From Candidatus Pacearchaeota archaeon (GTDB taxonomy: Archaea > Nanobdellota > Nanobdellia > Pacearchaeales > UBA284), in contig JAPLYB010000040.1 of NCBI GenBank assembly GCA_026395795.1, positions 5,464-69,463 on the forward strand: DNA of 64,000 nucleotides, in the 5' to 3' direction. A program made the position numbers and the translations under genes. Shown here in pieces: positions 14,526 to 32,148 of this stretch (position 1 is its first letter; each line of letters begins with the position of its first letter). The notes below the pieces were generated by a model. It was given only the letters and a program-made list of their open reading frames with translations, was not told where the DNA came from and did not search any database.

Positions 14526-14903
14526 TTACTTCCTTAGATACAATTCAATCTTTGTTGGATCTTTCTTAATCTCACGAACAACTGTTGCAGGTCCGATAAT
14601 TGTTAAAGAATCCCTATTCCCTACAAGGGCATTAGCCATTTTTTCTCTAAGACCCTGAAAAATAGTCAGGTTCTTTGTCTGAGGCACAAAACTGGTGAGC
14701 TCTATGCCTTTAAATTTGGAAGACCTTCCAATCTTTCTCATTGTCTCTTCAATCAAATCAGCTTCTTCTTGTGGCTCAAGTTTTCCTTGAATAAGAATGA
14801 TTTTATTCTCCTCAGCCATTTCAATTAACTTCTTAACTCTTTTATAACTGCTTAAATACGCGAGTTCTCCAAATGGAATAAACTGAATTGTTACGTCTTT
14901 CAT
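14526..14903 (-). CDS. small conserved protein co-transcribed with GTPase (DUF2073-like)
   Basis: 125 aa ORF 18 nt downstream of GTPase gene on the same strand. Confidence 0.35.
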   Translation of the reverse strand: MKDVTIQFIPFGELAYLSSYKRVKKLIEMAEENKIILIQGKLEPQEEADLIEETMRKIGRSSKFKGIELTSFVPQTKNLTIFQGLREKMANALVGNRDSLTIIGPATVVREIKKDPTKIELYLRK

Positions 14904-14921
14904 TTTATTTTACCTCTTATT

Positions 14922-15560
14922 TTAAACTTTTTTAATTAAATTAAATAACGAGTCATAAAACTCGTCTATGTTCTTTCCTTGTTTTGCTGATATTCCAACT
15001 ACCCCATACTCTGGGAATGCTGCTTCTATTTTTTTTGTATCAGCTCCTCTTAAATCAATTTTATTAGCTGCAATAAGCACTGGAATCTTTCTAGCCACTA
15101 GGTTTCCGATTATTGTAACATTAACTTGAGTGTAAGGATTTTTAGTTGAATCAAGCACAATAACAACAGCATCAACATCATCTAACCATTTAATTGCATC
15201 TATAACCCCTTTTGTGGCTTCCTTAGCTCTTTGTTTAGCTTCCTTTGAATTTAAACCGTATGCTAAGAAGTCTTCATAATCAATTCTAGTTGCAATTCCA
15301 GGAGTGTCAATTAACTTGAATGTGGCTTGTTTTCCATTATGTTTGATATTGACTTTTTCTTTAAATTGAACATTCCTTGTTTCATGAGGAACCTTAGAAG
15401 CTGAACCGAGTTCCTCTCCAATCCAATCTAAACATATCTTGTTTGCAAGTGTTGTTTTTCCAGAGTTTGGGGGTCCATAAAAACCAATCTTTACATTTTT
15501 CTTGGTTTTAAAAACATCTTCGAAAAATCTTTTGAAAAAACTCACAAAATTATTAGCCAT
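14922..15560 (-). CDS. small GTP-binding protein (MMR_HSR1/Era-like GTPase)
   Basis: G1 GPPNSGKTT, G3 DTPG, G4 NKID motifs. Confidence 0.7.
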   Translation of the reverse strand: MANNFVSFFKRFFEDVFKTKKNVKIGFYGPPNSGKTTLANKICLDWIGEELGSASKVPHETRNVQFKEKVNIKHNGKQATFKLIDTPGIATRIDYEDFLAYGLNSKEAKQRAKEATKGVIDAIKWLDDVDAVVIVLDSTKNPYTQVNVTIIGNLVARKIPVLIAANKIDLRGADTKKIEAAFPEYGVVGISAKQGKNIDEFYDSLFNLIKKV

Positions 15561-15700
15561 TTTTTCTTAACACATACCCATTTTAATTTTTATTAAAAGT
15601 GTAGCAATATTTAAACCTTGCTATTTCATAAAGAAGATTTAAAGAATATTTGCCCTCGACAACATCACAAAAAATATTACAATTCAGTAGCAAAATTAAC

Positions 15701-16513
15701 TCACTGTTTTCTTTCTTTAGCAAACAACAAAAATGTGATAGTCATTGCAATAGTTATCAAGATTGCGCTTATAATCCATCCAACATAAGGAATAAACAAA
15801 ACCAGCACACTCATGATTAAAAAAAGAAGCATCAAGAATAACATTGAGAAGAAATTATGCCCGACAATAGAAAAGCTTCGTTTCATTGCTTTCCATACAT
15901 TAGAGTCTTCTAAAATCATAGAATATGATGTTAAAGAGAAGAAAAGATAAAAGATAAAGAGGATTATCACCTCAAAAATAGAATAGATAGATAATGCGGT
16001 CTTAAGGATTGGATCAATAGCAACTGAAGGCAAAGATAGGATAACAGCCAAAATAAAGAAGATTATATTAAACAAGATATTAAACAAAAAGATCCTTCCC
16101 AAGAATTTCATTCCATATTTATTCATCTCGCTTAATCCTGTTTTTTTATTCTTTTCATAAAATTCCTTCATCATCCCAATTATTCCTCCATTGAAGTAGG
16201 ATGTTACAATCAAGAATACTAAGAGGAATAACACAGCCATTACAATCAAAAGGACAATGGTTCCAGGAGTTTCTAGATTAGCTAACATATCATTCACAAT
16301 TTGAGTAGAAGTTGCAGTATCAATTGTTTCTGAAAACAATTGAGTGAATGGTACTCCAAGAATCTTTAAAAAAACAAATATTCCCAAAAGAACAAGTATC
16401 AAAGATAAAATCAAAGAAAATAGGGCTGGAAGTATAACTCTTGGATTTGCAAATACTCCTTTAAAACCTTCACCAATCAATTCGAAAATATTTCTTTTTT
16501 TTGTTTGTACCAT
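15701..16513 (-). CDS. polytopic membrane protein, hypothetical
   Basis: ~6 hydrophobic helices, 270 aa. Confidence 0.45.
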   Translation of the reverse strand: MVQTKKRNIFELIGEGFKGVFANPRVILPALFSLILSLILVLLGIFVFLKILGVPFTQLFSETIDTATSTQIVNDMLANLETPGTIVLLIVMAVLFLLVFLIVTSYFNGGIIGMMKEFYEKNKKTGLSEMNKYGMKFLGRIFLFNILFNIIFFILAVILSLPSVAIDPILKTALSIYSIFEVIILFIFYLFFSLTSYSMILEDSNVWKAMKRSFSIVGHNFFSMLFLMLLFLIMSVLVLFIPYVGWIISAILITIAMTITFLLFAKERKQ

Positions 16514-16559
16514 CTTTTTTATTGATATATTATAATAAAGACCTATTTAAAATGTACAC

Positions 16560-19500
16560 CTAATCTAAGCCTTTTGGAATGATCACAGTGCAGTCTGTTT
16601 CTTTTCCAACACCATTTCCGCAGGTATCATAACACTTAACATACCATGGCTTATCATCCCAACTAGTTCTATGTTCAAAACTTCCAGTTGTTTCAAATTT
16701 TTCTGACTCAAGTGTTTTGTTTGCAGCAAAAATACAAGTGTTTATCTTTTTTCCAAACGAATAATGATATGAACAGATTGCTTCTTCATTTGTTTTCAGA
16801 ACAAGGTCGTTCCCTTCTTTGTAAAGTCTGATTATCTCAGGGGTATCATGATCTTCATAAACATCTAAGTTAATCTGTGCTAAAGCATTATTAAAAGCAG
16901 TATCGACACATTTGATGTAGATTGTTACAGTGCCTCGAACTGGGATATCTTCTATAACCGCATTTGTTGAATGAGTGTTTGCATATGTGATTGAAAACTT
17001 CTTCATTCCTTCATTAAACCCTTTAGTTGACCAATAACATGTCGCATTTCCACTATCAGAGCCATCTGAAGTAGAAACCATTAAAGGAACTGTTGCAGAT
17101 ACATTGCATCCAGATATCTGTGTGCCATTTTCTGGATTAATGCTGGATATTTTTAATTCTGGTGATGCAAAAAGTTTTAATAAATAACTTTGCTGCATTT
17201 CATTTCCAGCTGTATCATTGCATCTGATATAAATCGGATTGACAATTCCACTTGGTTCAGAGATCAGCTCTGTTAGATTTGTTTGACATTTCCATCCGCC
17301 CAATGTCAAGTTTGATTGACATTGAGTAACATTATTCATTATTCCATATTCCTGATCTTCTTTAGCCCATCTGCAGCTTGAGTTCTCATTAACATATATC
17401 GTCAATGGGACTTGAGTCACATTAAATGCAAATTTATTATAATACTCTCTATCAGTAGCTGTGACAACTGGTGGAGTTAAATCAGGACCAGCAGTAACAT
17501 TAAAGATAAATGTGTAAGCTGCAATGTTTGTGTTTCCATAAGCATTTGCACATCTCACATAAACATATGGTATTGATTGATGAATTGGAAACTGTTGTCG
17601 AAGTTCTTTTCTCAAAACCGTGCTTTCATATGGAAAGTCCATATCACTGAAATTTGCAGTCAACTGAATATCCCATTTACAAACAGCATCTTCACTCAAA
17701 TTGATTTTTATCATCAATTGAGTATAATCTGGAATTCCTTTTCCAGTTCCATTTGACATATCAATAAGAATTGTTGTTGGTGTTGTTCCGAGACTTGAGT
17801 TAAGATATACTACTTCATTATTCTGCACATTTCTTGCTTCAACTATAGTTATCCAAGGTGCTTTTCCAGTATTTTGTTGAGCAACACACCTGCCATCTGC
17901 AACAGAATAACTTGTTCCGCTTACATTTACACTATCAACAAACATACATGCCTGCCCTAAACTTTCGCATCTGTATTTTGAACATGGCCTGTTCGCATCA
18001 TTATTGCATAATTCACAATCCTCATTTCCTGCAGGAGGAAGTGAAGGATTACATTGCACTTCGTAATATTTCTCATCATATGAAGCATAATAAATTAATG
18101 CAGTAATAGCAGTAACTAAAACAGTAATTCCCAGCACAACCCAAAAAACAGGCGCAGCACCCGCGGCAAACATTATGATTGTGTAGCCTCCCGAAGCAAT
18201 CATACTCATTCCAGAAGCAATCAATGACCCTTGTTCAAATCCAGGTCCCCTATTGCCAGTAAAAGCTAAGATAATCATGACTATTCCTGCAGCAACCATA
18301 AGAGAACCCATGACTATTCCAGCAAGTTGAGCTGCCTTTGACATTCCAACTGCAGTTGCCTTAGTTGCAATTGTCGCCGCTCCTTCACCAGCAACTTTTG
18401 CATTAATGCCTACAACAGCTTCGTTAACTACAGCATACGGACTGTTTACAGTAACGATACCAGCAGTTTGCATACCAACACTACCAACATTCCCTCCAGC
18501 AATTTCAAAGCCCCCTGTAGCGAGCTGTTTTATGACAAGGGGATTATTTGCAGCAGCCTCAAAAAGCTGATTATTAAACATAACAACTCCTTGCTTGACA
18601 GTTCCAGAAATTATCTGTGTTCCAGTAGCTAATGAACCACTAGCAATCGTTGAACCAACAGTTAATGCAGTTCCGGCCCCTATTACAGCACCCTGTTGAA
18701 ATGTAGTACCTGCCGTGCTTGCAACAGCCGCTGGTGAAAATAATATTTTTCCAACGTGTGATAACTTAGTCGCTCCTGCTAAGACAGCTGTAAGAGCAAG
18801 ATATCCCGCAAAAGACGCACCCATTGTTGTAGCAAACCACCCAACATATCGTCCAAATTTTCCCCAGCCAGTGGCTTCTTTTATAGATGGTTCATTCCAA
18901 CTAGATTCTACATACCCTAAATACTTTCCATACGCTTCTGGCAATCCTAAATCTTTTTTCCCTCTTGTTTGATTTGTTGAATTTTCATCAGGTTTTTTAT
19001 CAAATTCTATAACACTAAATCCAGAAGTATTCTTTTTATTATAATTAAACCATGTTCCACAATCCCCTAAAGATTTACATCTATGAGCCATATAAGTATA
19101 AAATTCATCACTTAAGCATTCTGAATTAAATGTATCTGCTCCCCAAAAAGATTGTTTATATTGACAAATATAACTCCCCAGATTCCCGCAAATCTCTTCT
19201 TTATTGTCAAAACCATTTGTTCCTTCATCTAGTCCAGGAGGATACCTCGGCAAACAAATCGGCTTGATTGGCATCCCTTCTTTTGTTGTTCCGAATACGA
19301 CCCAGTTATTTATTTCAGAGAGACTGGTTGTAACATTCAAGAAAAGGTTTCCTTTACTGTCTTTATAATCTCTGACTTCATCCCACCAATAACAAAAAGT
19401 ATTAGAGTTGCAATCCTCTTTAGTAGATATGTTGCTGCATGATGCCCAAGAATTATCAACACAAACAGAATAACCTAATTGTCCAGATCCATCAGAATTA

Positions 19501-20618
19501 CCCATACAAACTTGTTGTCTGTAATCTGCACAAGGTTCAACATAATCCTTTCCATACAAACAATAGTGTCTCCAATCTCTCGAGCCCATAGGGGCGGTCC
19601 CATTCTCTATATTCCACCGTGTATCATAAACACACCATGCTTCTCCATTTTGTGCTGTTTCTTCATCAGTTTCGTCTGGTGGAAAAATAATCTCCCCCCC
19701 AACTTCCAGGTTTTTATAAGTTGTATTACAAACTCCAGTCTCACATTTATTCGTTGAAATATCACAAAAGCCACCACATCTTTGTGCTGGCTCTTCATCA
19801 ATATAAATATTATTGCAGGTATCTACAAAATACTTATCTGGAAATCCATCGATGCATTTTCCTTTTTCTCTTGGAAGTTTGGTACAATCACATTGAGGAA
19901 CATTGTCATAACACTTTTTATCTGCAAAAAAAGTTCCTAGCCTAGACTCTTTACATTCCTGTCTTGTTATATACTCACAACCAGCAAAGCTTTTACAACA
20001 TCCTAATCTTTCCTTTTCCATAATACTCAAACAATCAAGTTCATTTGTTGTGCCTTGATCCCACACACCACCTTTTAAAAAACAAGTGAAGTTGGTAGCC
20101 ATAAATGATTGCATTCCCTTTATGCAACAAGCCTTACCGCATAATGATATAGAAGTGCAAGTAGCGTCATTTGGAATAAAACTTCCTGTTGCGCATCCTT
20201 CTTGAAAAGTATTTTGTATGCATAATCCTTGAGTATTGATGCAACATCCTAAAGAACACGATTGATTTCTCTGCCAGCAAGGAGGACTAATTTGTCCAGG
20301 ATTCTCGCATTCAGTAACATTGCATTCGTCTAACATAGTTGGTTGATATCTTGCTCCTGTTTTTGTTGTTGGACAGCATCCAAAGTCGCTATCAGCAGAA
20401 ACACTTGGAATCAGATTAAAGGGATTAAAGAATGAAACAACATCTTTCAATGTAGAAGATATAAAGTCAACAGAACTATTCTGTTTTATCTCTCCATTAA
20501 TTATTTCTGGTTGTATTGCTGTAAAAACAACAGGCATTGTTACGACAAGCACAGTCATAAACATTGCGATAAATGCTTCTGACTTGCTTATTCCTGTTTT
20601 ATTCTTTCTAATATTCAT
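16560..20618 (-). CDS. giant (1352 aa) Cys-rich surface protein with N-terminal signal/TM, central Gly/Ala-rich multi-TM block and conserved C-terminal domain
   Basis: Very high Cys content, N-terminal hydrophobic segment, hydrophobic block around residues 590-830, C-terminus paralogous to 21510..24800 protein. Confidence 0.6.
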   Translation of the reverse strand: MNIRKNKTGISKSEAFIAMFMTVLVVTMPVVFTAIQPEIINGEIKQNSSVDFISSTLKDVVSFFNPFNLIPSVSADSDFGCCPTTKTGARYQPTMLDECNVTECENPGQISPPCWQRNQSCSLGCCINTQGLCIQNTFQEGCATGSFIPNDATCTSISLCGKACCIKGMQSFMATNFTCFLKGGVWDQGTTNELDCLSIMEKERLGCCKSFAGCEYITRQECKESRLGTFFADKKCYDNVPQCDCTKLPREKGKCIDGFPDKYFVDTCNNIYIDEEPAQRCGGFCDISTNKCETGVCNTTYKNLEVGGEIIFPPDETDEETAQNGEAWCVYDTRWNIENGTAPMGSRDWRHYCLYGKDYVEPCADYRQQVCMGNSDGSGQLGYSVCVDNSWASCSNISTKEDCNSNTFCYWWDEVRDYKDSKGNLFLNVTTSLSEINNWVVFGTTKEGMPIKPICLPRYPPGLDEGTNGFDNKEEICGNLGSYICQYKQSFWGADTFNSECLSDEFYTYMAHRCKSLGDCGTWFNYNKKNTSGFSVIEFDKKPDENSTNQTRGKKDLGLPEAYGKYLGYVESSWNEPSIKEATGWGKFGRYVGWFATTMGASFAGYLALTAVLAGATKLSHVGKILFSPAAVASTAGTTFQQGAVIGAGTALTVGSTIASGSLATGTQIISGTVKQGVVMFNNQLFEAAANNPLVIKQLATGGFEIAGGNVGSVGMQTAGIVTVNSPYAVVNEAVVGINAKVAGEGAATIATKATAVGMSKAAQLAGIVMGSLMVAAGIVMIILAFTGNRGPGFEQGSLIASGMSMIASGGYTIIMFAAGAAPVFWVVLGITVLVTAITALIYYASYDEKYYEVQCNPSLPPAGNEDCELCNNDANRPCSKYRCESLGQACMFVDSVNVSGTSYSVADGRCVAQQNTGKAPWITIVEARNVQNNEVVYLNSSLGTTPTTILIDMSNGTGKGIPDYTQLMIKINLSEDAVCKWDIQLTANFSDMDFPYESTVLRKELRQQFPIHQSIPYVYVRCANAYGNTNIAAYTFIFNVTAGPDLTPPVVTATDREYYNKFAFNVTQVPLTIYVNENSSCRWAKEDQEYGIMNNVTQCQSNLTLGGWKCQTNLTELISEPSGIVNPIYIRCNDTAGNEMQQSYLLKLFASPELKISSINPENGTQISGCNVSATVPLMVSTSDGSDSGNATCYWSTKGFNEGMKKFSITYANTHSTNAVIEDIPVRGTVTIYIKCVDTAFNNALAQINLDVYEDHDTPEIIRLYKEGNDLVLKTNEEAICSYHYSFGKKINTCIFAANKTLESEKFETTGSFEHRTSWDDKPWYVKCYDTCGNGVGKETDCTVIIPKGLD

Positions 20619-20636
20619 TTTTAATTTTTTTAAGTT

Positions 20637-21416
20637 TTACATTATTCCTGGAGGTATCACCCCTCCTCTAACAGCAAACACAAAAACATGTGATGGATTT
20701 TCTCTTTCTTTCAAAGTAAATATCTTTGTGTCATCACTCGTCCTAAACTTCTCAATATCAACCCAATAATGTCCTAACATATAAGACAATGGATCAAAAT
20801 CTTTTTTATTAAGTTCTTCATCAATAATTTCCTGGCTCAACATCACAAAATCATAAAGCGGCCAGTCCAAAGCAGAATTAACTTTTTCAAAAGTTTTCTT
20901 TTCTTCACCTTTTACCATCGTTATCTTACAATCAATAGGAATAGAGATTTTTCCTTGAATCAGCTCAACAGAAAAATTAGATGCGTCACAGGAGTTTATA
21001 TCATATCCTTTATTTCTTGCATTTTCAACAAAACCATGGACACATCTTGTGACAGTATTCGTTCTTTGTAATTCTCCTTTTATAACACTCTCTATCTTCT
21101 CTTTCAACATTGGTTCTTGATTAACACAAGCTGCATAATACTGAGAAGTATAACAAAGATATCTTCTGCACACACCCTGATAAAAAATACAATTGCTTTG
21201 TTCAAGATAACCGCTTTGATTAGATATCTTTTCAACAAAAGGTTCTAGAACATCTTTTACACAACTGGAAACATAAGCGTCTGGAATAAGTGAATCAACA
21301 GCAGAAATATTTTGGTTTGTCAATTTTGGAATAAAGATTATAGCCAAAATAACAATCGCAATTACTGCAATTGCAATAATAATAAATAAAGTCGCCTGAC
21401 CTCTTTTGCTTCGCAT
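20637..21416 (-). CDS. type IV pilin-like protein (class III signal peptide, KRG|QATLF)
   Basis: MRSKRGQATLFIIIAIAVIAIV: positively charged N-terminus, G-Q cleavage motif, hydrophobic stretch; paralog of 24802..25602 and 46141..46890. Confidence 0.55.
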   Translation of the reverse strand: MRSKRGQATLFIIIAIAVIAIVILAIIFIPKLTNQNISAVDSLIPDAYVSSCVKDVLEPFVEKISNQSGYLEQSNCIFYQGVCRRYLCYTSQYYAACVNQEPMLKEKIESVIKGELQRTNTVTRCVHGFVENARNKGYDINSCDASNFSVELIQGKISIPIDCKITMVKGEEKKTFEKVNSALDWPLYDFVMLSQEIIDEELNKKDFDPLSYMLGHYWVDIEKFRTSDDTKIFTLKERENPSHVFVFAVRGGVIPPGIM

Positions 21417-21509
21417 AATAATCCATGTTTTTCGGCTTTTTAAATTTTATAGTTTAAAAGGCATATTATCATAAAACTATCAAAATAAAAATCAGCTAAG
21501 AGTCTATAT

Positions 21510-24500
21510 TTAACCAAGGTTTTGTGGAACAATAACTGTACAATCGTCATCAGGAGCTGCTCCATTTCCACAAGTATCATAACACTTAACATACCATGGC
21601 TTGTCTCTCCATGAAGTTACATGTTCTAATCCATCTGACGTTCCAAAAGGTTCTGCTCTGCGAATATCAGTAGCATTGAATTTGCATGAGTTTGTATTCT
21701 TATTAAAAGAACATAATGCATTACCATTTGTTTTAATAACAAGTTCACCGCCCTGTTGATAGAATCTGATTATTTCTGGGGCAGAATTATCCTCTTTTAC
21801 ATTGAATGCGGTGCTATTCCACACTTTGCTGCCTGTTGAATCTTCGCATGAGACATTGACATGATTTTCTCCAACAGAAACTTGAACTTTAGTTAAGTGT
21901 GTATTCGAGCCTGTTTCATCAAATTCTTTCCATCTAGTGCTTAAATCACTCTTCCAATAACATGTAGCAGCCCCTTCGTCACTTCCCCCGCTTGTTGTAA
22001 CATTGACTGTTATGTTATCATTCACATTGTCTGCACAAGCTTCGATTGTCAACCCGCTTACAGGTTCAACAGAATCTATGAGCAAGGTTGAAGGATAAAA
22101 TATTATAACATAAGACACAGGATTCACATTCCCAGCACTATCATTGCATTTTAGATAGAATATATTGGCCATCTCTCCTTTCAATGTCAAGTTTGTATAA
22201 CCATAATACAAAACTTCATCTGGTCCGCCAGTGGTTTCATTAACAATAAATTCATTAGTCATGGATTCATAAGGCAGATCACCAGGAGCAGACCATCTGC
22301 ATGTTGCATTTTCATCTAAGTAAACATAGAATGTCAAATTGCTTTCTCCGATTCCCATTGATAAATAGGACGCATTATCAGGAGAGGTCGCATTTAAGAA
22401 AGGAGGGAATCTATTGCTTCCCATTTCGAATTTCTTGATAGTAAAACGAATTTCTTGATCTGGTTGCATTCGATTAGTAGGTATAGCCTTATCTTGACAA
22501 GAATAAGTCAGAACTTCGTGAACATCATTCTCTATTGGAGCGTAACTTAATGTTTTTATGTGTTCTTTTGTGTATCGATTATCTGCCAACCAATATTGAG
22601 GATCAGTTAAATCAGGAGATGTTCCATCATCTGTGTAAGCGCATTGTGCGTCTTCACTCATTGTTAGATTTATTACAATTCTTTCAAAGTTTTCTACATC
22701 TACTCCATCTTCACAAGGAAGGTCTCTAATCCTTACATTCCCTTGTCCATCAATGATATCTTTAGTACATTCAATAACATATGGTGGAATTGGATCATTA
22801 ACAGTTCCATAGGTGCATTCAGCGATCTCGTCAAATACACAACCCTGCCCAAGTGCTTCACATCTAGGTTGGTTACATGGTCTAAAAGGATCTTCATTAC
22901 ATAAATGACAATCTGCTCCTCCCGCTGGTCTAACCCAAGAATCACAATAGAATGAATATAAAGAAACCCTGGCTGCTGTGCCTGCATTAGGGTCATGTGC
23001 ATTAATATATGGACTATTGAGCTCTGGATCATTAAAAAATTCAACACCAATCAACTTCCCAGGAAATCCAGAACCAGCTGTTTCTCTTTGATCTTTTTTT
23101 AATCTTGCACCAACAGAGCTTCTTGTCCCAGCCCAAGTATCATAAGCACCGCAACTTCCAAGTTGTCTGCATCTTTTAGCCATTGCAGTGCTCCATATAG
23201 CCTCTCTATCTAATGAATTTATACAACCTGGATTATTTGCACTTCCTTTAGAATTATCTGCTGGTTCGCACCCTGTATCTGAATTAGAGGTTATATGGGA
23301 GTTTCCTTCAAAGAATATTGAGGATATAGAATCTGGATCAGAATTCAATCCCCAAATAAGCGGGGCTTCAGCACCAAAACGATAACTATAAGTTAATTCA
23401 CTTTCCACACTTGAAGTCCACATGGAACCACCAAGATAGCATCGTGAGTGTTCTCCTTCAAGACAATGCCAAGCATCCCAACCCCATCCTGTTTCAGAAT
23501 AAGTAGCTAATCGGTCCTTTACAGCACTTCCATATTCAATTGTTCCAACAGAACAGTCTTGACCCGATCCATCTTCAGAATTCAAGGGAAATCTAGGCAA
23601 ACAAACATTGTTCGCGAATCCCCTTATATCTGTAAGCCAATTCCATTCAGCATTTTTATCATAAGAAGGATATAAAAAATCTTTTTCTGCTTGTAAAACT
23701 CTAAACTCAGTAAAGTTGTCAATCCACATGCAAAGAGGATTTGTAGTACAACTTAGTTTGTCAGTTAGTTTAGTGCAGTCTTCTGTAATAATATTGGGTA
23801 TTTCTGTAGCTCTCTTCCCATCCATCACACACATCGTGCTTCCATCTGATTTTAAAGGGAATATTTCAACAATATTATTTGGCCCACAAACATAAGAGAA
23901 ATCACTCCATCCAACTCCTGGTTTTTCTTCTTCATAAAGGACTTTAGAGATATTATAATCATATCCACACCAGGAGTCACTAAGGTTATATTGAATTTGT
24001 TTTCCACTATTTCTGCTATCATCATACAAACAACTAGCAAATTTGCAAGATGCATCATTCCCTTTCTGGCTGCAAGCATAACCATCACTGCATTGCATGT
24101 ACTCATCTTCTTGATTTCCGCAAGAATCAAACCAATAAACCTTGCTGGAATTATCTCCGCATCCTTTTCTAAAATGCTCTGAACATTTTGATGAACATCC
24201 GCCTTCTGTCACATTCGAACAAAATTTGCCCAAATGGAATTGTCCATCGTTGCTATTACAAGATTCTCTTGTTGTGTATGAACATTTGTCTTCACGATCA
24301 ATTACACAGCATCCTTTCTCACCCGAATTAAAAAAATCTTGACAAACATCTGGATCACTTGTATAAAATATTTCTGGGATAAATCCGTGCGATTCTGCTC
24401 CTTTTTCACATCCAATCTTAGAAGTTATATCCCATCCGTTATTCAATCCAGGATAAATACAACAAACCTTTTGACAGTTGGTTGCAGTGCACATTGCATC

Positions 24501-24800
24501 ATTTAAAAATTCTCCATTGCATAATTTCTTGGGAGTATTATAAGAACATCCATCATCTGTTACGCAGCATCCCTTTTTACAATTAGCAATATTATCACAA
24601 GAAGTTGGACTGAATGGCCCTGGAACACACGCACTCTCTAAACTCTCGATACAGATAGCTCCACTAAGGTTCTCACAACACCCATACGGTGTCGCGCTGC
24701 TGCGCGACCCAGAGAGCAAAAATGAAAAGATAAAAAGTAATGATACTGCAAATATCAATTTTCCTAAACTCTTTTTTTTGTTTGATAAGTTGGATTTCAT
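21510..24800 (-). CDS. giant (~1096 aa) Cys-rich secreted surface protein, paralogous C-terminal half to 16560..20618
   Basis: Signal peptide after MKSNLSNKKK; shared blocks CHLCNEDPFRPC, RCEALGQGC, PEIIRFYQQGGELVIKTN, DKPWYVKCYDTCGNG with the 1352-aa protein; start placed at 24800 (3 nt after pilin-like stop) rather than track start 24857. Confidence 0.6.
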   Translation of the reverse strand: MKSNLSNKKKSLGKLIFAVSLLFIFSFLLSGSRSSATPYGCCENLSGAICIESLESACVPGPFSPTSCDNIANCKKGCCVTDDGCSYNTPKKLCNGEFLNDAMCTATNCQKVCCIYPGLNNGWDITSKIGCEKGAESHGFIPEIFYTSDPDVCQDFFNSGEKGCCVIDREDKCSYTTRESCNSNDGQFHLGKFCSNVTEGGCSSKCSEHFRKGCGDNSSKVYWFDSCGNQEDEYMQCSDGYACSQKGNDASCKFASCLYDDSRNSGKQIQYNLSDSWCGYDYNISKVLYEEEKPGVGWSDFSYVCGPNNIVEIFPLKSDGSTMCVMDGKRATEIPNIITEDCTKLTDKLSCTTNPLCMWIDNFTEFRVLQAEKDFLYPSYDKNAEWNWLTDIRGFANNVCLPRFPLNSEDGSGQDCSVGTIEYGSAVKDRLATYSETGWGWDAWHCLEGEHSRCYLGGSMWTSSVESELTYSYRFGAEAPLIWGLNSDPDSISSIFFEGNSHITSNSDTGCEPADNSKGSANNPGCINSLDREAIWSTAMAKRCRQLGSCGAYDTWAGTRSSVGARLKKDQRETAGSGFPGKLIGVEFFNDPELNSPYINAHDPNAGTAARVSLYSFYCDSWVRPAGGADCHLCNEDPFRPCNQPRCEALGQGCVFDEIAECTYGTVNDPIPPYVIECTKDIIDGQGNVRIRDLPCEDGVDVENFERIVINLTMSEDAQCAYTDDGTSPDLTDPQYWLADNRYTKEHIKTLSYAPIENDVHEVLTYSCQDKAIPTNRMQPDQEIRFTIKKFEMGSNRFPPFLNATSPDNASYLSMGIGESNLTFYVYLDENATCRWSAPGDLPYESMTNEFIVNETTGGPDEVLYYGYTNLTLKGEMANIFYLKCNDSAGNVNPVSYVIIFYPSTLLIDSVEPVSGLTIEACADNVNDNITVNVTTSGGSDEGAATCYWKSDLSTRWKEFDETGSNTHLTKVQVSVGENHVNVSCEDSTGSKVWNSTAFNVKEDNSAPEIIRFYQQGGELVIKTNGNALCSFNKNTNSCKFNATDIRRAEPFGTSDGLEHVTSWRDKPWYVKCYDTCGNGAAPDDDCTVIVPQNLG

Positions 24801-24801
24801 T

Positions 24802-25602
24802 TTAAACATATTTTGGATTTTTAATAGCAAATAAAAATTCGTTATCACTTGGATCATTGATATAAGTTATATTGTACACTCTGATTCCTAAAGTTGGTGT
24901 TCGAGAATTTAGTAAGATATCATCATGAGTACTCGCGTACTGTATTGCAAAATTAACTCCGTTTCCAACAATTTCTTCGTTCACCACGTCTTTAGCGAGC
25001 ATAACCTGTCCATAAAGGTTAGAATCAATTGAAATATCAAAGTCGTTAAAATTTAAGTTTTCATCTTCTTTAGTAACAATCTTTATTGGACAAGTAATAT
25101 CAATTGTAACACTTTCTGGCTTAAGCGCAACACCCAACAACAACGTTCCGCATGTAGTAACAATATCTCCTTTGTTTTCAGTTTGTAATTTAAAAGAATT
25201 AATACAAGACCTTGTAATGGAATCAACCTTGACCAACAATTGATTTTCAATGTCTTCTTTTAACATTGGTTTCTGATTAACACAATCATCGGTTTCATTT
25301 TCGCTGTAACAAAGAAATTGAAGATTATTCCCATACCATGTGTAATAAGGCGATGGGTCAAGATATCCCCCTTGTTTAGAAAGTTTACTTAAAATAGGCA
25401 ATACCTCGTCTGTGACACAACTAGAAATATAAGCCCCTGGATTTAATGTAGACGTTTGTGGAGTTGTTGGTCTGCTTATTCTTGGAACGAGAAAGATGGC
25501 AAGAAGCACAACAGCAACTATAACTATTCCAATAATAATAAACAGGGTTACTTGTCCTTTCTTATTGCCTCTTTTGTACATTTTAATTGAAAGATACTTC
25601 AT
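24802..25602 (-). CDS. type IV pilin-like protein (class III signal peptide, KKG|QVTLF)
   Basis: MKYLSIKMYKRGNKKGQVTLFIIIGIVIV; internal starts at 25602 or 25581 preferred over track start 25701, which overlaps the divergent gene. Confidence 0.5.
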   Translation of the reverse strand: MKYLSIKMYKRGNKKGQVTLFIIIGIVIVAVVLLAIFLVPRISRPTTPQTSTLNPGAYISSCVTDEVLPILSKLSKQGGYLDPSPYYTWYGNNLQFLCYSENETDDCVNQKPMLKEDIENQLLVKVDSITRSCINSFKLQTENKGDIVTTCGTLLLGVALKPESVTIDITCPIKIVTKEDENLNFNDFDISIDSNLYGQVMLAKDVVNEEIVGNGVNFAIQYASTHDDILLNSRTPTLGIRVYNITYINDPSDNEFLFAIKNPKYV

Positions 25603-25699
25603 ATAATCTATAATTTTGGTATTTAAAAAAGTTATTGAACACAGATTTTGAGGATAAGTTCTCAAAAAGATTTTTAAATACATCTTACATAAAGAAAAC

Positions 25700-28132
25700 A
25701 TGGAAAAGAGGATCCAGAAATTAAGATTGACCTTTCTAATAACGGTTTTTACTATATTTACTATTGTATTACTATTTAATGATGTGATAGCAGTAGAACA
25801 ATCTCAACTAGATAGATCATATAACTTTTTAAAAAATAGGTGCGTGGGAAAATGGGCTAGTATTGGTCTAGACGCCCACATATTTTGTTTAGAAGCATTA
25901 GAAGAAAAATTAACCTCAAGACAGGTAAATGCCTCAGTATTTAACTTAAATGCTAAAAGTTATAACAGCACCTGTTGGCCAGGTCCGTCAGAAGGTGTTT
26001 GCAATGTTTTAGAAACAGCAAGAGCCAAGATGGTATTGTATGAAACAGGATATGCAGATAACATGGATTCTATTGATGAATGGATCATTAATCATACATC
26101 AGCCTACAATGGTGTTGATTGGCGTTTACAAATTTCTTCTTCAACAAACGCAGTGAACTGTTTGATTAGGTATGACAGCATGGAAGGTGAATCAGAAGGG
26201 GAGTTTATGATTAATTCCCAAGGGATAATCGAAAGTATGACCGATAATATGAAAAGTTGTTTTTATAACATAACATTAACTCCATACTGGTTAGGATTAA
26301 AAAATATTTCTAGTTGTTTAAACCAAACATTTGAATTAAGTTGTGATGAAGACGTAAACGCAAATTTCTTTTTCATGAAAGGATCAAAATATTATATTAC
26401 AAGTGATTTGATTATTCCATACAAAATAGGAGATCCATTTAACATGACTCTTTCTAGTAGATGCGCTGGGAAAGATGGGCAGTGTAATTATGAATCTACT
26501 CTATGGGCAGCGTATTCATTCTATAGAACAAATCAACAAGAGAAAGCTAAATCCTTTATTCCATACTTAGTTATGCTAGAAGAAGAAAATCAAGCATTAA
26601 TGCCTTCTGCATTTCTTTATGCAATAACACAACAAGAAAATTATGCAGAAGATATCTCTGCTTTACAAGATAGTACGGGATTGATAATTGTTCCAGGTTC
26701 AACACATTGCAAGTATTACAACAACGGGCTTTCTAGAATAACCGGGGCTGCAAAAGAACCAGGCACGAACACAACAAAGATGGAAAATAGATTATTCTCA
26801 AATCTAGAACAAAAAACAGAAGGAAGTTATCGTTACTGGTCCTGCACTTCAGAACCGAATGACCAGATAGAAGATACCTCATTAATTCTTCTAGGAACAT
26901 CCTCCTCTTCTCAACAACCACCAACAGACCCTTGCCTTTCAGCAGGTTTAGGTTTTAGTTGTGTAGCAAATTGTACTACCGCTGGAGGTTCTCGCATAAT
27001 GTTCTGTAATGATGGTAGTGAGTGTTGCAATTTAACAACAAGCAATTATGAGTGTACTTCAAGATCTGGAAGTTGCAAACCAACATGTTATTCAAATGAG
27101 ACTCAAACATCTTACAATTGTGAAGCAGGAACAATTTGTTGTAAACAGATAGGAATTTCTCTTTGTGTTTCAGAAATTCATGGACAGATTTGTTCATCTA
27201 GTTCAGATTGCATAAACAATTTAACAGGAGCAATTATCCCATTCATTACATCAGCAGATAGTGCTTATTGCTGTAAAGGCAACTGTTCTTCTGGGAATGG
27301 ACAAAGACAATCCTGCGCTTCTCTTTATGGAACAATCTGTAATCCATCAACAAGTTCATGTCAAGACAATTGGCTTTCAGCAATTGAACCAAATTGTTGC
27401 CGTTTAGGTTTCTGTGTTGCAGGACAATTGACCTGTGCACAACAAGGAGGCACAAGATGTGCTTCTGGAGAAGGATGTAAAGATGGCACATTAGTAATAG
27501 CTTCTGATACAAACAATCAAGCAACATGTTGTATTCAAGGAGGAAGATGTATTTCTCAATCATGTACAGGCGCATCTTGTGAAGAAGGAGAAGCATGTTA
27601 TGGTGGAACAATGAAAGAAACATTAGATGTCATAAGATGCTGTGAAGGAGGAAACTGCTTAAAAACATGTAATGGTTATGGTGGAAATCCTTGTGGTTCA
27701 GACCTTGTTTGCAAAGGAACAAAGAAACCATCAAGTGATTTTGCAAACTGCTGTGTTGGAACTTGTGAAAAGAAAACCTTCCCATGGTTGATTGTAATAA
27801 TTATCGCAGCAGTTGTACTTGGAATACTAGCATTCTTCTTATTAAGAAAAAAAGGTGGAAAAGAGAAAAAAGAAAGTGATTCAGAATTAATGTATGGCTT
27901 CCCGCCAGCATCCAGCCCATCACCTTCAGCTATTCCCGCATCATACTCTCAGCCATCACTTCCTAAACAACGAGCTCCAGCATCTCCATCTGTTCCAATG
28001 GCGCCAAGAGCAATGTCAAGATCTCAACCTTCTCAATCTTCAGCTAAGAAAAGACCAACAAAAGCAAAGACATCTCGAGAGAATGATCTCGACGATACAT
28101 TAGAAAAACTCAAAAAGATGAGCGGTCAATAA
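25700..28132 (+). CDS. type I membrane-anchored surface protein with seven CC-doublet Cys repeats, C-terminal TM and Pro/Ser-rich cytoplasmic tail
   Basis: N-terminal TM, repeated ~35-aa modules each with a CC doublet (ECCNLT, ICCKQ, YCCKGNC, NCCRLGFC, TCCIQGG, RCCEGGNC, NCCVGTC), TM PWLIVIIIAAVVLGILAFFLL then KKGGKEKK and PSPS-rich tail. Confidence 0.5.
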   Translation: MEKRIQKLRLTFLITVFTIFTIVLLFNDVIAVEQSQLDRSYNFLKNRCVGKWASIGLDAHIFCLEALEEKLTSRQVNASVFNLNAKSYNSTCWPGPSEGVCNVLETARAKMVLYETGYADNMDSIDEWIINHTSAYNGVDWRLQISSSTNAVNCLIRYDSMEGESEGEFMINSQGIIESMTDNMKSCFYNITLTPYWLGLKNISSCLNQTFELSCDEDVNANFFFMKGSKYYITSDLIIPYKIGDPFNMTLSSRCAGKDGQCNYESTLWAAYSFYRTNQQEKAKSFIPYLVMLEEENQALMPSAFLYAITQQENYAEDISALQDSTGLIIVPGSTHCKYYNNGLSRITGAAKEPGTNTTKMENRLFSNLEQKTEGSYRYWSCTSEPNDQIEDTSLILLGTSSSSQQPPTDPCLSAGLGFSCVANCTTAGGSRIMFCNDGSECCNLTTSNYECTSRSGSCKPTCYSNETQTSYNCEAGTICCKQIGISLCVSEIHGQICSSSSDCINNLTGAIIPFITSADSAYCCKGNCSSGNGQRQSCASLYGTICNPSTSSCQDNWLSAIEPNCCRLGFCVAGQLTCAQQGGTRCASGEGCKDGTLVIASDTNNQATCCIQGGRCISQSCTGASCEEGEACYGGTMKETLDVIRCCEGGNCLKTCNGYGGNPCGSDLVCKGTKKPSSDFANCCVGTCEKKTFPWLIVIIIAAVVLGILAFFLLRKKGGKEKKESDSELMYGFPPASSPSPSAIPASYSQPSLPKQRAPASPSVPMAPRAMSRSQPSQSSAKKRPTKAKTSRENDLDDTLEKLKKMSGQ

Positions 28133-28219: not shown

Positions 28220-28657
28220 TCACTTAATTTCGCATATCTTTCTTAATTTAGAATACATCACATTCAAAAAATTTAAGACTTTTTTTGCGTATTCTTCTGT
28301 AAGCATCGTTCCATAATATTTTATTCCATTCCTATAATATCTTACCTCATCTAGAAAGCGTATTTCAAATTCAGAAAACCCTAAATTTTCTAGATAGGAA
28401 ACTTCTGCTTCATGTGAATTCCCTGCATTGTAACCATCTAAAAACATTTTTGCCCTTATAAGTTCAAGAATAACGTCATAGCAAGAATCAACAACAAAAT
28501 TTGAGCTCATTTTTTCTTGAGTAATTGTTTTGAGTGTGACCTCCAAAAATTCTTTCTTTTTATCAGCTTCTTTTACCAAACTTTTTGCCCTTGCCTTATT
28601 GGGCATTTGTTTTTTTACAATTCCATCTTTTAGTAATTCATCAAAATTTTTTATCAT
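28220..28657 (-). CDS. HEPN-domain protein (toxin partner of upstream MNT)
   Basis: 145 aa helical ORF overlapping the 3' end of the MNT gene by 4 nt; HEPN-like composition. Confidence 0.45.
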   Translation of the reverse strand: MIKNFDELLKDGIVKKQMPNKARAKSLVKEADKKKEFLEVTLKTITQEKMSSNFVVDSCYDVILELIRAKMFLDGYNAGNSHEAEVSYLENLGFSEFEIRFLDEVRYYRNGIKYYGTMLTEEYAKKVLNFLNVMYSKLRKICEIK

Positions 28658-29202
28658 AGTTCAATTGCTCCTTTAAGTGTGATTCCACTTAAAATATTCT
28701 CCTTTAAATTCTTTATGATGGTTTTGAACGAATCATAATAATTTAAAATAATCTCTCTTCCTAATAACTCCTCAAAATTTTTTAGATTAACCTTTTTTTC
28801 TTTTGCACCAATAATGGCTATATCTACATCAGAGTTTATAGTATCTTCTCCAAAAGCATAAGATCCAAATAAGATTATGGTTGCGGAATGAAAATTATCA
28901 TAAAAAAATTGCACGAGTCCTGATTCATATATCTGTTTAAAATTGTCTGCTCTTTTTAACCAAATTATACGCTGACTATCTCTGTTTAATTCTATTAGCC
29001 ATCTCTTAGACTCTTTATCTTTTTTTATTTTTAAGAAATTCTCTTTTTCAAGTAAAGGTAATGCCTTTGCTACTGCTGGTGGCGACACTTTCAAAGCCCG
29101 AGCTATGTCTCTAGCATTTAGAGATTTTCCCGCTTTAATGAAAAACAATCTCAAAATCTGTTGTTGAAGGATTGTTAACTTAGGTTTATATGTGTAAATC
29201 AT
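28654..29202 (-). CDS. minimal nucleotidyltransferase (MNT) with N-terminal HTH
   Basis: GSYAFGEDTINSDVDIAII nucleotidyltransferase motif (GS...D.D); N-terminal ARDIARALKVSPPAVAKAL HTH. Confidence 0.65.
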   Translation of the reverse strand: MIYTYKPKLTILQQQILRLFFIKAGKSLNARDIARALKVSPPAVAKALPLLEKENFLKIKKDKESKRWLIELNRDSQRIIWLKRADNFKQIYESGLVQFFYDNFHSATIILFGSYAFGEDTINSDVDIAIIGAKEKKVNLKNFEELLGREIILNYYDSFKTIIKNLKENILSGITLKGAIEL

Positions 29203-29272: not shown

Positions 29273-32002
29273 CTATGTTCTTGTTTGTTTGAATCCTTCT
29301 TTAATCTGTTCTTTAGTCCAGCCAGACTCTAAAAGTTCTTGTTCAATCAAGTTCTTGTCTTTTCCTTCTGCAAGGCTTGATTGAATATATCCAACAAGAC
29401 CTATCAAATCATCTGGATTAGCAAATAAACTTCCTCCAGGATTTCCATAATTCTGGCCTAATTCAAATCCTTGAGATGTATCGCCAGAACTCTTTTTTTT
29501 CCATATAAAAAGCAAAACAACAATGACTGCAATAAAAATGACCGCTGCAACTATAATCGGAAGGACGATGCCTGGCTCGCCAGTTCCTCCACCGCCATTA
29601 TTTCCTCCAACATTCAAGGTGCTGAATTCAGGGGATGCATAGAACACAATTTGTGAAAAGTCCTGTGAAGAGGGGATTGCTAGGTTCATCACTTGACTTT
29701 GAGTCAAAGTTATTCCAAGAGCATCACTAAATTCATGGAATTGTAAGTTTTCTTGGGATTTTATCTGTTGTCTAGTAGTTCCAGAAGGTATATTCAAAAC
29801 AAAATAAATATTTTGTGAAGTAGACGGAGAAACTCTTATTATCATCAAACTTATTTCTTGAGTCAATCCATCATCAAATGTAACTCTTTTATTACTCCCG
29901 CCAAGTCTGTAATTAATATCTCCCTGCCAGTTTCCTATTGCATTCTTATACTTATCTTCTAAACTTGAATCATAAAATCCTGCCCCTATATCACTTAAAT
30001 GACTTAAATCAATCTGATCGATATCAGGGAAGTATGTGCTTTCTTGAAAAACAAGCGTGTCATTTATTGCAACAGGAATTTTTAATTCATCAAGTTGTGT
30101 CTTCAAAGCATTAAGATTAGCAGAAGGATTTGTTAACTGAGATTCAATATAACTCAATGCTGCACTGATTTGACTCGCATTATATATCAAATCTTTATAC
30201 CACAAAGAGCTAATTTGGCTTCCGATGCTGTTATACGCACTTTTTTTCTGCATAAGACTTTGATTGACGGTGTCTATTGAGAGAGAAGCATTCACAACAA
30301 AGGTTCCAGTTGCAGTTAATCCAGCAGAATCAGTCACCTTAACAACAAGATTGTGCGGTCCTTCACTATAAGAATGGCTTGCTTCAGGAATAATTGTAGT
30401 CTCACTAGGCGTTCCATCCCAACCCCAGTTATATGATACAATCGGTGTTCCAGCATTTTGTACAGTAACACGAAAAAGAGTGTTGACATTCGGAGCTACA
30501 TTTAGAGGAGTCACGCTTTGCACAACAGGAACACTTGCTACTTTAAAATTGATTATTTGAGATAATGTTCCACTTATGTTTAAACTAAGATGATATACCG
30601 CATTGCTTTGTTCAGGAGCAGTAACATTCATTGCCTTGAATGGAAGTGATTGCTTAGTCATATTTATCTTGGGTTGGGTAACACCAACCTCATAAAGCAA
30701 CTTGCTAGATGATGGTCCCGTAAATTCGGGTTGAAATTCTAATAATAAATTGTTTAGTATTAGGGTTTGTGTAGTTAATGATCTAATCTTCATGGGGATT
30801 ACACACTCATTAGTGCAATTTCCCCCATATCTTGTGTCAATATAATTTTGTATATAAGGTAAAAGCCCAAGCCCATTCTTCCCTATCGTGTTAGTTTCAT
30901 TGAATATTATGTCATCATCAAAGACCGCAAATTTTGCTTCTTTCACATATATTCCATAATCTTCAACAAAATTTTGTGTTGGGGGCGTTCCATAAAATCC
31001 ACATACGGGTGAATGAGACTCTTTTTGTATTTCATACTTTGGTGTAGCAATGTAATGCGAAAGTTTAACACAAACAAAGTAATCACCAGCATGATCAATG
31101 TAAAAGTTGGTTGGTTCTCCAGATTCATCAATACCGATGTCACAACTTACATTTGTAAATGATAAATCCTCTACACTCGTGTTACAATTTCCTTTCTTAT
31201 TTCCCTGTGCATCCCATACAGAAAAATCAATATCATTCTCACCAGAAGGATCTCCCTGAGAGACTCTCAACAAAACAGAGACTTCGAGTAAAGCTGTTTT
31301 ATTTAGTTTAATTTTTTCACAATATGACGTTGTTGTTAATTGAGATGATTGAGTTGCATAAAGAGGATCAAAACAGGAACTTAATCTGGGCTCACCACAC
31401 CAGGAATTATCTATGGCATGATCATATTCGAACTCGCTACTTCCATCGTCTAATAAATCAACTTTAAAAGGAGATTCTCCGCAGACACCTTCCCCTACAT
31501 TTCCAATTCCAGTTACTTCAAAACTCAAATCCACAATTTGGGGGTGCATTCCATTAACCTTTAATCCCAAATATCTTTCTTCATTTCCAAGAGAGAGTAT
31601 CTTCTCTTCTTCGCCACTAGTCGCAGTGTACACTGCAATACAGTCCTGCGAGCAATTGAATATAGCACTAGCATTTCTTAAAAAATCAACAAGAAACATT
31701 TCTTTAACAATAGACCCGGGGTTGATTGTCGCCGTTACGATTGCATCAGCAGGATGATTTGTTAAAGAAAAATTAACAAATCCTTCAAGTACGCTCCCTG
31801 CAGCAAATCCCGATTGGCTTAAATTAAAAAAAGGATCTCCTTTTCCAACAGTTGCTGAACTTAAGTTAATAGATAAAACAGATAAAAAAAGCAGAGATAA
31901 TATTAAGAAAACAGACCATGAGATTCTATAATATAATCTATATCTATTTCTTATAAGACTTTCTTTAATTTTCATACTAGCCTCTTTTTCTAACATAAAC
32001 AT
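29273..32002 (-). CDS. type I membrane-anchored surface protein (909 aa) with PKD-like domain
   Basis: N-terminal TM, PKD-like block VSYNWGWDGTPSE...YSEGPHNLVVKVTDSAGLTATG, C-terminal TM IVLPIIVAAVIFIAVIVVLLFIW + KKK. Confidence 0.5.
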   Translation of the reverse strand: MFMLEKEASMKIKESLIRNRYRLYYRISWSVFLILSLLFLSVLSINLSSATVGKGDPFFNLSQSGFAAGSVLEGFVNFSLTNHPADAIVTATINPGSIVKEMFLVDFLRNASAIFNCSQDCIAVYTATSGEEEKILSLGNEERYLGLKVNGMHPQIVDLSFEVTGIGNVGEGVCGESPFKVDLLDDGSSEFEYDHAIDNSWCGEPRLSSCFDPLYATQSSQLTTTSYCEKIKLNKTALLEVSVLLRVSQGDPSGENDIDFSVWDAQGNKKGNCNTSVEDLSFTNVSCDIGIDESGEPTNFYIDHAGDYFVCVKLSHYIATPKYEIQKESHSPVCGFYGTPPTQNFVEDYGIYVKEAKFAVFDDDIIFNETNTIGKNGLGLLPYIQNYIDTRYGGNCTNECVIPMKIRSLTTQTLILNNLLLEFQPEFTGPSSSKLLYEVGVTQPKINMTKQSLPFKAMNVTAPEQSNAVYHLSLNISGTLSQIINFKVASVPVVQSVTPLNVAPNVNTLFRVTVQNAGTPIVSYNWGWDGTPSETTIIPEASHSYSEGPHNLVVKVTDSAGLTATGTFVVNASLSIDTVNQSLMQKKSAYNSIGSQISSLWYKDLIYNASQISAALSYIESQLTNPSANLNALKTQLDELKIPVAINDTLVFQESTYFPDIDQIDLSHLSDIGAGFYDSSLEDKYKNAIGNWQGDINYRLGGSNKRVTFDDGLTQEISLMIIRVSPSTSQNIYFVLNIPSGTTRQQIKSQENLQFHEFSDALGITLTQSQVMNLAIPSSQDFSQIVFYASPEFSTLNVGGNNGGGGTGEPGIVLPIIVAAVIFIAVIVVLLFIWKKKSSGDTSQGFELGQNYGNPGGSLFANPDDLIGLVGYIQSSLAEGKDKNLIEQELLESGWTKEQIKEGFKQTRT

Positions 32003-32148
32003 AATTTAATAATATAAAAACTCTTCGATTTCTTGAATTAATAAGTTATCATATTATTAATATTAACTGATTTGATTATTGACCTTAGTTTTTTGTGATA
32101 TCTTTTAATCTAGTCTTATTTTATTCCTCTTATTGTATCTCTAATTAT

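Follow-up and report, generated by a model that had tools for sequence, protein, structure and literature searches.

The stretch of DNA analysed here, referred to throughout as the window, comprises 64,000 nucleotides of contig JAPLYB010000040.1 from a Candidatus Pacearchaeota archaeon. It contains two tandem modules, each consisting of a gene for a small protein with a pilin-like N-terminus (A) followed by a gene for a giant Cys-rich surface protein (G). On the minus strand A2 and G2 are followed by A1 and G1, with 1-18 nt between the two genes of each pair, and these open reading frames (ORFs) lie where the original prediction, made from the sequence alone, had placed two consecutive minus-strand pairs. 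The four genes are listed below with matches to hidden Markov models (HMMs) of the A family, the N-terminal half of the giant (GN) and its C-terminal half (GC). In the motifs an arrow marks the predicted cleavage site.

24802-25602, minus strand: A2, small class-III-signal (pilin-like) protein of the upstream module; family HMM E 9e-78
21510-24800, minus strand: G2, giant Cys-rich surface protein, 1096 amino acids (aa), 64 Cys; GN E 8e-96, GC E 2e-143
20637-21416, minus strand: A1, small class-III-signal (pilin-like) protein of the downstream module, 259 aa; N-terminus MRSKRG↓QATLF
16560-20618, minus strand: G1, giant Cys-rich surface protein, 1352 aa, 64 Cys; GN E 2e-151, GC E 7e-182

A1 has the same sequence as NTX24_04680 and G1 the same as NTX24_04675, both of a Candidatus Pacearchaeota metagenome-assembled genome. 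The G+C content of the window is 29-39%, and its housekeeping genes are archaeal (purine synthesis, topoisomerase I, GluRS, the origin-associated GTPase OapA, and OapB). The ORF of A2 was called as 24802-25701 on the minus strand, and a start at ATG 25602 or 25581 (MYKRGNKKG↓QVTLF) is more probable because of the leader lengths of homologues and a TATA-like TTTTTTAAATA at about 25615-25625, approximately 30 nt upstream of the likely start. The ORF of G2 was called as 21510-24857 on the minus strand and its likely start is ATG 24800. The stop of A2 and the ATG of G2 are separated by 1 nt or overlap by 8 nt, and 18 nt separate the stop of A1 from the ATG of G1. The predicted site is KKG↓Q in A2, with the Q codon at 25552-25554, and KRG↓Q in A1, where the Gln is Q7. 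A1, A2 and A3, a further member encoded elsewhere in the window, are paralogues with 25-33% identity and 32 invariant columns in their alignment. The paralogy stands as originally proposed, but the sequence blocks said to be shared are approximate: GGYLD is present in A2 and A3 and reads SGYLE in A1, and CYTSQ is found in A1 only.

The giants had been described as paralogous over their C-terminal halves. These align at 33% identity over the last 520 aa (BLASTP, E 5e-65), but the homology is not confined to them, as the N-halves of G1 and G2 also align (25% identity, E 2e-13) and both halves of both proteins match the family HMMs. Because the N-halves align as well as the C-halves, G1 and G2 are paralogous end to end. 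In G1 the GN part occupies approximately 18939-20411, a hydrophobic G/A-rich region 18072-18938 and the Ig (immunoglobulin)-like GC part 16563-18071. The extra length of G1 comes mainly from the G/A-rich middle (approximately aa 561-849, hydrophobic at approximately 590-850), a region that G2 does not have. G1 has a transmembrane (TM) hairpin at 18078-18335, with strong TM segments at aa 762-791 and 810-847, and is predicted to be an integral membrane protein with a helical hairpin. G2 lacks a membrane hairpin; it carries a Sec-type signal and a Cys-rich N-half, and its GC part lies at approximately 21513-22958. The giants had been described as secreted, but G1, with its membrane hairpin, would not be simply secreted. 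Hydropathy gives a topology of signal, N-half outside, two TM segments and C-half outside, the number of TM segments that separate the halves being even. The placement of both halves outside is consistent with the Cys residues and N-glycosylation sequons found on each (20-28 N-x-S/T sequons).

Relatives of the giants are few: a word-indexed search of 5.8 billion clustered proteins gave 21, and a profile search added only 4. All named ones are from Pacearchaeota or Nanoarchaeota and none has a Pfam domain. The family alignment has dozens of invariant Cys residues and a conserved knot at the start of the C-half, C-x-L-C-N-x-D-x-x-R-P-C-x-x-x-R-C-x-S-L-G-x-x-C. An AlphaFold2 model of G2, built from 22 sequences, has a mean predicted local distance difference test score (pLDDT) of 68.9. 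It is usable at residues 40-360, which are Cys-rich and mostly beta, and at approximately 620-1096, and is unreliable at 363-613. In the model the C-half forms four to five Ig/FN3-like beta-sandwich domains, and Foldseek matches it to PTP-delta Ig-Fn, NCAM2, desmoglein, protocadherins and fragments of the Aureispira grappling hook (best E 5e-12). The C-half of the giants thus has the tandem beta-sandwich ectodomains of Ig/FN3/PKD-repeat surface adhesins, and this modelled string of domains bears out the original description of the giants as adhesin-like, for which a structure prediction of the conserved C-terminal domain had been suggested. No structural neighbour of the N-half was found in fold searches, and neither G1 nor G2 has a Pfam match, S-layer profiles included. 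Scans of Pfam, NCBIfam and PHROGs with six window proteins and four extra pilin-like proteins of relatives (see below) gave nothing meaningful. Two matches from the profile search of PDB sequences, to CDC50A (via a TM helix) and to influenza neuraminidase (E ~6e-4, 70 residues), were rejected as spurious.

The small proteins and their N-terminal signature

The small proteins had been proposed to carry a class III signal with Gln at +1. This was examined with a FlaFind-like pattern in six frames of the window and with a family logo rather than with a dedicated predictor. The pattern matched the N-termini of A1, A2 and A3, the N-terminus of G1 at 20579 on the minus strand, and an ORF segment at 55691 on the plus strand. 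Among 108 unique A homologues from 83 loci, the +1 residue is Gln in every one, followed by x-T-x-F-I-I-I-A, and the -1 residue is limited to Gly (80), Ser (15) and Ala (13). Basic residues occupy both preceding positions in most sequences (K/R at -3 in 98/108 and R/K at -2 in 98/108), and the nearest Met is mostly 5-12 residues upstream of the site. The logo was anchored by a regular expression demanding Q, T/S/M and F, which 110 of 118 A sequences matched; seven of the eight that it missed also read G, A or S followed by Q, and the eighth (5991 of locus L047) was called without its N-terminus. Inspection of the A family alignment revealed no conserved AXA-type c-region after the hydrophobic stretch. 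The giants and the neighbouring surface proteins have ordinary Sec-type signals ending in VSA, with V-V-S-A conserved there in the split homologues described below.

With a short basic leader, a small residue at -1, a hydrophobic stretch and no Sec c-region, the A proteins have the attributes of an archaeal class III signal, and their N-termini look like class III rather than Sec signals. The proposal is upheld by the family logo, K/R-K/R-(G/A/S)↓Q. Gln at +1 is characteristic of the EppA-processed pilins of Methanococcus. In the A family position +5 is Phe, not Glu. No other stretch of 12 residues in A1 is as conserved as residues 4-15, where the top-residue frequency is 0.85 (whole-protein mean 0.51), a peak that would be expected for the processing site and N-terminal helix of a type IV pilin-like protein. 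The pattern match at the N-terminus of G1 (KTG↓ISKSE) was rejected as class III, because the -1 residue is not kept small in orthologues and the family has a Sec-type site, P-S-V-S-A, downstream.

An AlphaFold2 model of A1 based on 55 homologues has a pLDDT of 92.5 and a predicted template modelling score of 0.82. It comprises a helix at residues 5-33, a low-confidence linker and then three alpha-beta units. Four near-invariant Cys residues (C52, C88, C97 and C125) suggest an extracellular, disulfide-bonded head. Structure and profile comparisons gave no pilin fold or pilin family match for A, and a profile search of PDB sequences with the small protein gave nothing significant. As modelled, the head appears to be a new fold variant, and the name 'pilin' is justified by the N-terminus only.

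Conservation of the pairing and associated genes in relatives

In a scan that covered one genome per GTDB species, relatives of A were found in 186 GTDB species genomes. Almost all of these are labelled Pacearchaeota, Woesearchaeota, Nanoarchaeota or 'archaeon' (DPANN), and two records have bacterial labels (Patescibacteria group bacterium and 'bacterium'). The A, GN and GC HMMs were run on all ORFs of 83 loci of approximately 20 kb each. The original prediction had named related genomes as the place to look for the same pairing, and there it is kept: 103 of the 107 A genes for which 1.5 kb or more of sequence downstream was available have a GN-bearing gene next to them, at a median gap of 1 nt. 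The four exceptions, A3 and the A genes of loci L038, L061 and L058, are all divergent. Those of L038 and L061 resemble A3, and their next gene encodes another secreted protein of 600-640 aa.

The 90 complete modules are of two forms, 39 with a fused giant, as here, and 51 in which the giant is split. A split giant consists of a GN gene of approximately 550 aa with a Sec signal and a GC gene of approximately 770 aa with a Sec signal, a hydrophobic region and Ig domains. At least two A genes are present in 31 of the 83 loci, usually as a fused module followed by a split one, and tandem modules are therefore the rule and not peculiar to this window. Pairwise distances between A proteins correlate with those between the adjacent GC (r=0.82) and GN (r=0.71) parts, as would be expected for cognate partners, although shared ancestry alone also contributes to such a correlation.

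Split modules in relatives are followed by small proteins with class-III-like N-termini, of which four (p1-p4) were read in the inspected loci; examples of their N-termini are KRG↓QLKLSF, KKG↓YLEISF, GKA↓QIKIQQ and KKA↓QEEMVGF. Among the 38 split modules with at least 4 kb of downstream sequence, the third and fourth of these families, which can be counted cleanly, follow in 33, and a gene of approximately 900 aa with a weak S_layer_C match comes after p1-p4 in 31. In locus L005 p1-p4 and the S-layer-like gene occupy 14645-20550, with equivalents in L003, L004, L014, L015, L018, L023-L025, L029 and L030. The heads of p1-p4 show no detectable homology to that of A (hhalign against the heads of the p1-p4 families, probability <1%) or among themselves. 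A jackhmmer search started from p1 drifted into the A family, apparently via the shared N-terminal helix.

Clustering places both window modules in one sub-lineage with the complete genome CP061211.1 (710 kb), and A2 and G2 have no close orthologue. The gene order in this sub-lineage is beta-helix protein, PKD protein, divergent Cys-rich protein, A, fused giant, DUF7847 protein, OapA and OapB, and the window differs from it in having the A and G pair twice. The surface-protein cluster adjoins OapA and OapB (window 14526-15560, and loci L001 and L006). In CP061211.1 the cluster occupies 26-47 kb of the 710 kb, a position near the replication origin if the record is numbered from the origin.

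A third pair and the surroundings of the modules

A third pair had been predicted to have the same architecture as the tandem modules.

46141-46890, plus strand: A3, divergent member of the small family, N-terminus MSKRG↓QVTLF, no Cys; family HMM E 2e-42
46887-52577, plus strand: G3, partner of A3, 1896 aa, 7 Cys; ORF with a 4-nt overlap with A3

The small protein and the layout agree with this, but the giant is a different one, since G3 has only 7 Cys residues and no similarity to G1 was detected. G3, which is not a homologue of G1 or G2, carries a signal at its N-terminus and two central TM segments at approximately aa 1003-1064. The C-terminal part of G3, at approximately 1440-1870 (window 50094-52574), belongs to a large unannotated family with members mostly of approximately 600 aa. 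This family has 228 cluster representatives at E<=1e-3, and Pfam domains were found in 0 of 10 sampled members; one member of 2129 aa also has HTH_3 domains. In the region 43910-64000 an intron-bearing tRNA (Rfam 51 bits, missed by ARAGORN) precedes a tyrosine integrase (44083-45357), which is followed by A3 and G3, a DDE transposase-like ORF, an N6/N4 DNA methylase, AbiEii and a DUF6577 protein. Its G+C content is lower (28-31%), and it may be an integrated element carrying its own A and giant pair. Because A3 and G3 follow the tRNA and integrase, IMG/VR was searched for the A family, and no viral contig there carries a member. The tRNA region has no att-type repeat of at least 14 nt within the window.

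Two features lie on the upstream side of the tandem modules.

25700-28132, plus strand: Cys-rich TM-anchored protein, 810 aa; ORF divergent from A2
29273-36111, minus strand: two large TM-anchored surface proteins, 909 aa and 1320 aa, upstream of the module

The 810-aa protein has a Sec signal and a Cys-rich repeat region, with 42 Cys at residues 400-700, and near its C-terminus a TM segment and a cytoplasmic tail rich in S, P and K. Twelve loci were examined for the position of the gene of this family, and in these it lies upstream of A on the opposite strand. We suggest that it may be part of the same envelope system, because family matches occur in 55 of the 83 loci (jackhmmer, which can drift on Cys-rich sequence). 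The 909-aa protein has a weak, sub-threshold PKD match (E 0.017), with a recorded PKD match in the L001 orthologue, and the 1320-aa protein has beta-helix/NosD domains and 78 Cys; both adjoin the module only in the window's own sub-lineage (11-12 loci). Directly downstream of G1, at 15701-16513 on the minus strand, is a membrane protein with five to six TM segments and no Cys, whose L001 orthologue carries a DUF7847 match. Only 4 related loci keep it in this position, and it therefore probably lies outside the core of the module. Three MNT-type nucleotidyltransferase ORFs, close together within 28220-29202, 36511-37357 and 37533-38653, lie on either side of the large surface-protein genes. One of them carries a fused MarR-type helix-turn-helix domain. 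The MNT-type ORF at 37533-38147 stands beside a HEPN ORF (38144-38653), an arrangement known from toxin-antitoxin pairs; those neighbours of the other two that were scanned have no Pfam match. Next to the topoisomerase I gene is a free-standing ORF of 413 aa with a LAGLIDADG_3 domain (9848-11089, minus strand).

A candidate attachment apparatus

We think it somewhat probable that A and G form a complex of a minor-pilin-like adaptor and an adhesin, belonging to a surface apparatus related to type IV filaments and serving attachment. A would be made with a class III prepilin-type signal and, we infer, cut after the conserved small residue by a prepilin peptidase of the EppA/PibD type, which would leave Gln at +1. 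Its hydrophobic N-terminal helix would then stay in the membrane or be incorporated in the core of a short stalk resembling a type IV filament. The translationally coupled G would be exported by Sec and fold outside the cell, with an N-half rich in disulfides and a C-half made of a row of Ig-like domains. Its own hairpin (G1) and/or binding to A (the hairpin-less G2) would keep it at the surface. Together with the p1-p4 proteins of most relatives, this set would be analogous in function to a minor-pilin and PilY1 set or to the GspH-K tip. The filament-related device would push the large adhesin outwards, either through the S-layer or alongside it, so that the cell could attach to a surface or to a partner cell; a dependence on a host, and attachment to it, are what the lineage would lead us to expect. 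Duplication and divergence of whole modules would diversify binding specificity.

Proteins with class III signals encoded beside large Ig-rich adhesin-like proteins are a recognised theme of archaeal filament loci. Archaeal type-IV-filament loci often pair pilins with large Ig-rich adhesin-like proteins, and Epd-like 'system 1' filaments with a dedicated peptidase are present in methanogens and DPANN (bioRxiv 10.64898/2026.04.22.720090). The system described here is like Epd system 1 and other archaeal pili in the short basic leader, small -1 residue, Gln at +1 and hydrophobic helix of A, and in having several pilin-like genes in a row together with a large Ig-domain protein. It differs from these loci in that no ATPase, platform protein or peptidase was seen in the present locus, in that A has Phe instead of Glu at +5, no DUF361/Pilin_N match, a length of 250-270 aa and, beyond a linker, an alpha/beta head that is novel, and in that the giant carries a membrane hairpin of its own and a Cys-rich half without known counterpart.

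Other known systems are similar in part. The PilY1 operon (fimU-pilVWXY1E) and the GspH-I-J-K tip likewise combine four to five low-abundance pilin-like proteins with a large Sec-exported non-pilin adhesin, and GspK and PilX provide a parallel for one unusually large pilin-like subunit. However, there is no sequence or fold homology to either, and the present system is archaeal, with a membrane-anchored adhesin and without outer membrane or secretin. G1 and G2 do not belong to the PilY1 family, as they have no Pfam match and their C-half consists of Ig/FN3-like sandwiches without the C-terminal beta-propeller of PilY1. The Sulfolobus bindosome, made of class III sugar-binding proteins with BasEF, also has large non-pilin globular proteins with a prepilin-type signal. 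These are thought to assemble near the membrane or S-layer and not into long pili, which matches the linker and head of A, although A has no solute-binding-protein fold and is paired with a giant, and no Bas-like ATPase or membrane protein is encoded nearby. With the Aureispira grappling hook GhpA and the repeats of RTX ice-binding adhesins the giants have only the generic Ig fold in common, and no sequence family joins them; the Cys-rich N-half and the C-x-L-C-N...R-P-C...L-G-x-x-C knot belong to the present giant family alone.

Several results weigh against a link between the A and G complex and type IV filaments. The A proteins have no Pfam or NCBIfam match at E<=0.1, pilin models and DUF361 included; hmmscan against Pfam-A at this threshold gave spurious sub-threshold matches for A1 and A2 and none for A3. 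The membership in DUF361 (Class_III_signal, PF04021) that had been envisaged is thus not borne out by a profile match in either library. No Walker-A secretion ATPase of more than 350 aa is present within approximately 10 kb around the module in the 83 loci or in the 64-kb window, and no platform protein or prepilin peptidase is found among the ORFs profiled with Pfam, which were not searched systematically for either. Homologues of p1-p4 and of the S-layer gene were sought in the window and none was found; jackhmmer with the L005 S-layer-like protein had no match there. Lastly, G1 and most of its homologues have their own membrane hairpin, which counts against display at the tip of a long pilus. 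Because no machinery gene was seen locally, the link to a filament machine comes from the N-terminal signature and the multi-pilin gene set, and the hairpin in G together with the linker in A favours a short, membrane-proximal device, similar to the bindosome, over a long pilus.

Some of the same results would also fit a membrane-bound envelope or adhesion complex with no relation to type IV filaments. In it A would be an unprocessed, ordinary bitopic signal-anchor protein whose task is to serve the giant as a dedicated membrane chaperone or anchor. The filament ATPase seen near 0 of the 83 loci, the linker between the TM helix and the globular domain in the A model, the lack of a pilin fold or family match for A in our comparisons and the membrane hairpin of G1 are all in agreement with this. 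However, an unprocessed anchor would leave unexplained the invariant Gln at +1, the restriction of -1 to G, A and S, the K/R at -2 and -3 and the peak of conservation at the site, as well as the four further proteins with the same type of N-terminus that are co-encoded in most genomes. Because of the conservation pattern at -1 and +1 we disfavour this explanation and consider it possible but rather unlikely.

The S-layer-like gene downstream of 31 of the 38 split modules suggests another role, in S-layer biogenesis or anchoring. Here the hairpin-anchored Ig C-half would be a stalk similar to SlaB, and its function structural and not adhesive. The near-universal presence of the module and its genome-core position, adjoining PCNA or Oap genes, would also suit such equipment. 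In the window's own lineage, however, the module is not beside an S-layer gene. Duplicated modules diverge fast (25-33% identity between paralogues), which is more typical of specificity determinants, and hairpin-less variants such as G2 could anchor nothing. Rapid paralogue divergence and the hairpin-less variants lead us to regard a structural role of this kind as improbable. That the giant is instead an effector engaging the host membrane, by fusion or a cytoplasmic bridge, with the pilin-like proteins as a piston or pseudopilus deploying it, seems very improbable, since fold searches gave generic Ig-like matches only and no known fusogen or pore-former. Points in its favour are that the disulfide-rich giant has two parts, is anchored in the membrane and contains a long hydrophobic stretch that is amphipathic and G/A-rich, that host dependence is presumed for the lineage, and that the split form frees a secreted N-half.

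Going beyond the adaptor and adhesin complex that we prefer, we tentatively speculate that the Cys-rich anchor, one or more A and giant modules, p1-p4 and the S-layer gene constitute an attachment organelle specific to DPANN (Pacearchaeota/Woesearchaeota). Five pilin-like proteins would form a short pseudopilus, with the machine encoded elsewhere, that carries or deploys the bipartite, membrane-tethered giant through the S-layer to recognise and hold the host, and duplication of whole modules, as in the two copies here and the third A with its unrelated giant, would be the route by which host range evolves. This more elaborate proposal is doubtful, and we put it forward as a conjecture.

The A and giant families are unannotated in Pfam, NCBIfam and every other library tried, and targeted full-text literature searches found no description of the seven-to-eight-gene cluster with its fused or split and duplicated modules. 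The module takes up approximately 9 kb here and approximately 20 kb with its conserved neighbours, in a genome of approximately 0.7 Mb. It supplies clean markers for mining, namely the G↓Q-x-T-x-F-I-I-I-A N-terminus and the C-x-L-C-N...R-P-C...L-G-x-x-C knot, and a natural case of gene fusion and fission together with co-duplication of an adaptor-adhesin pair. The Pacearchaeota and Woesearchaeota, small-genome archaea that are abundant and uncultured, are presumed to be attached to other cells. The occurrence of the module in at least 186 species genomes, its near-invariant gene order and the position of its families outside Pfam and NCBIfam make it a concrete and testable candidate for an attachment apparatus of this large uncultured lineage.

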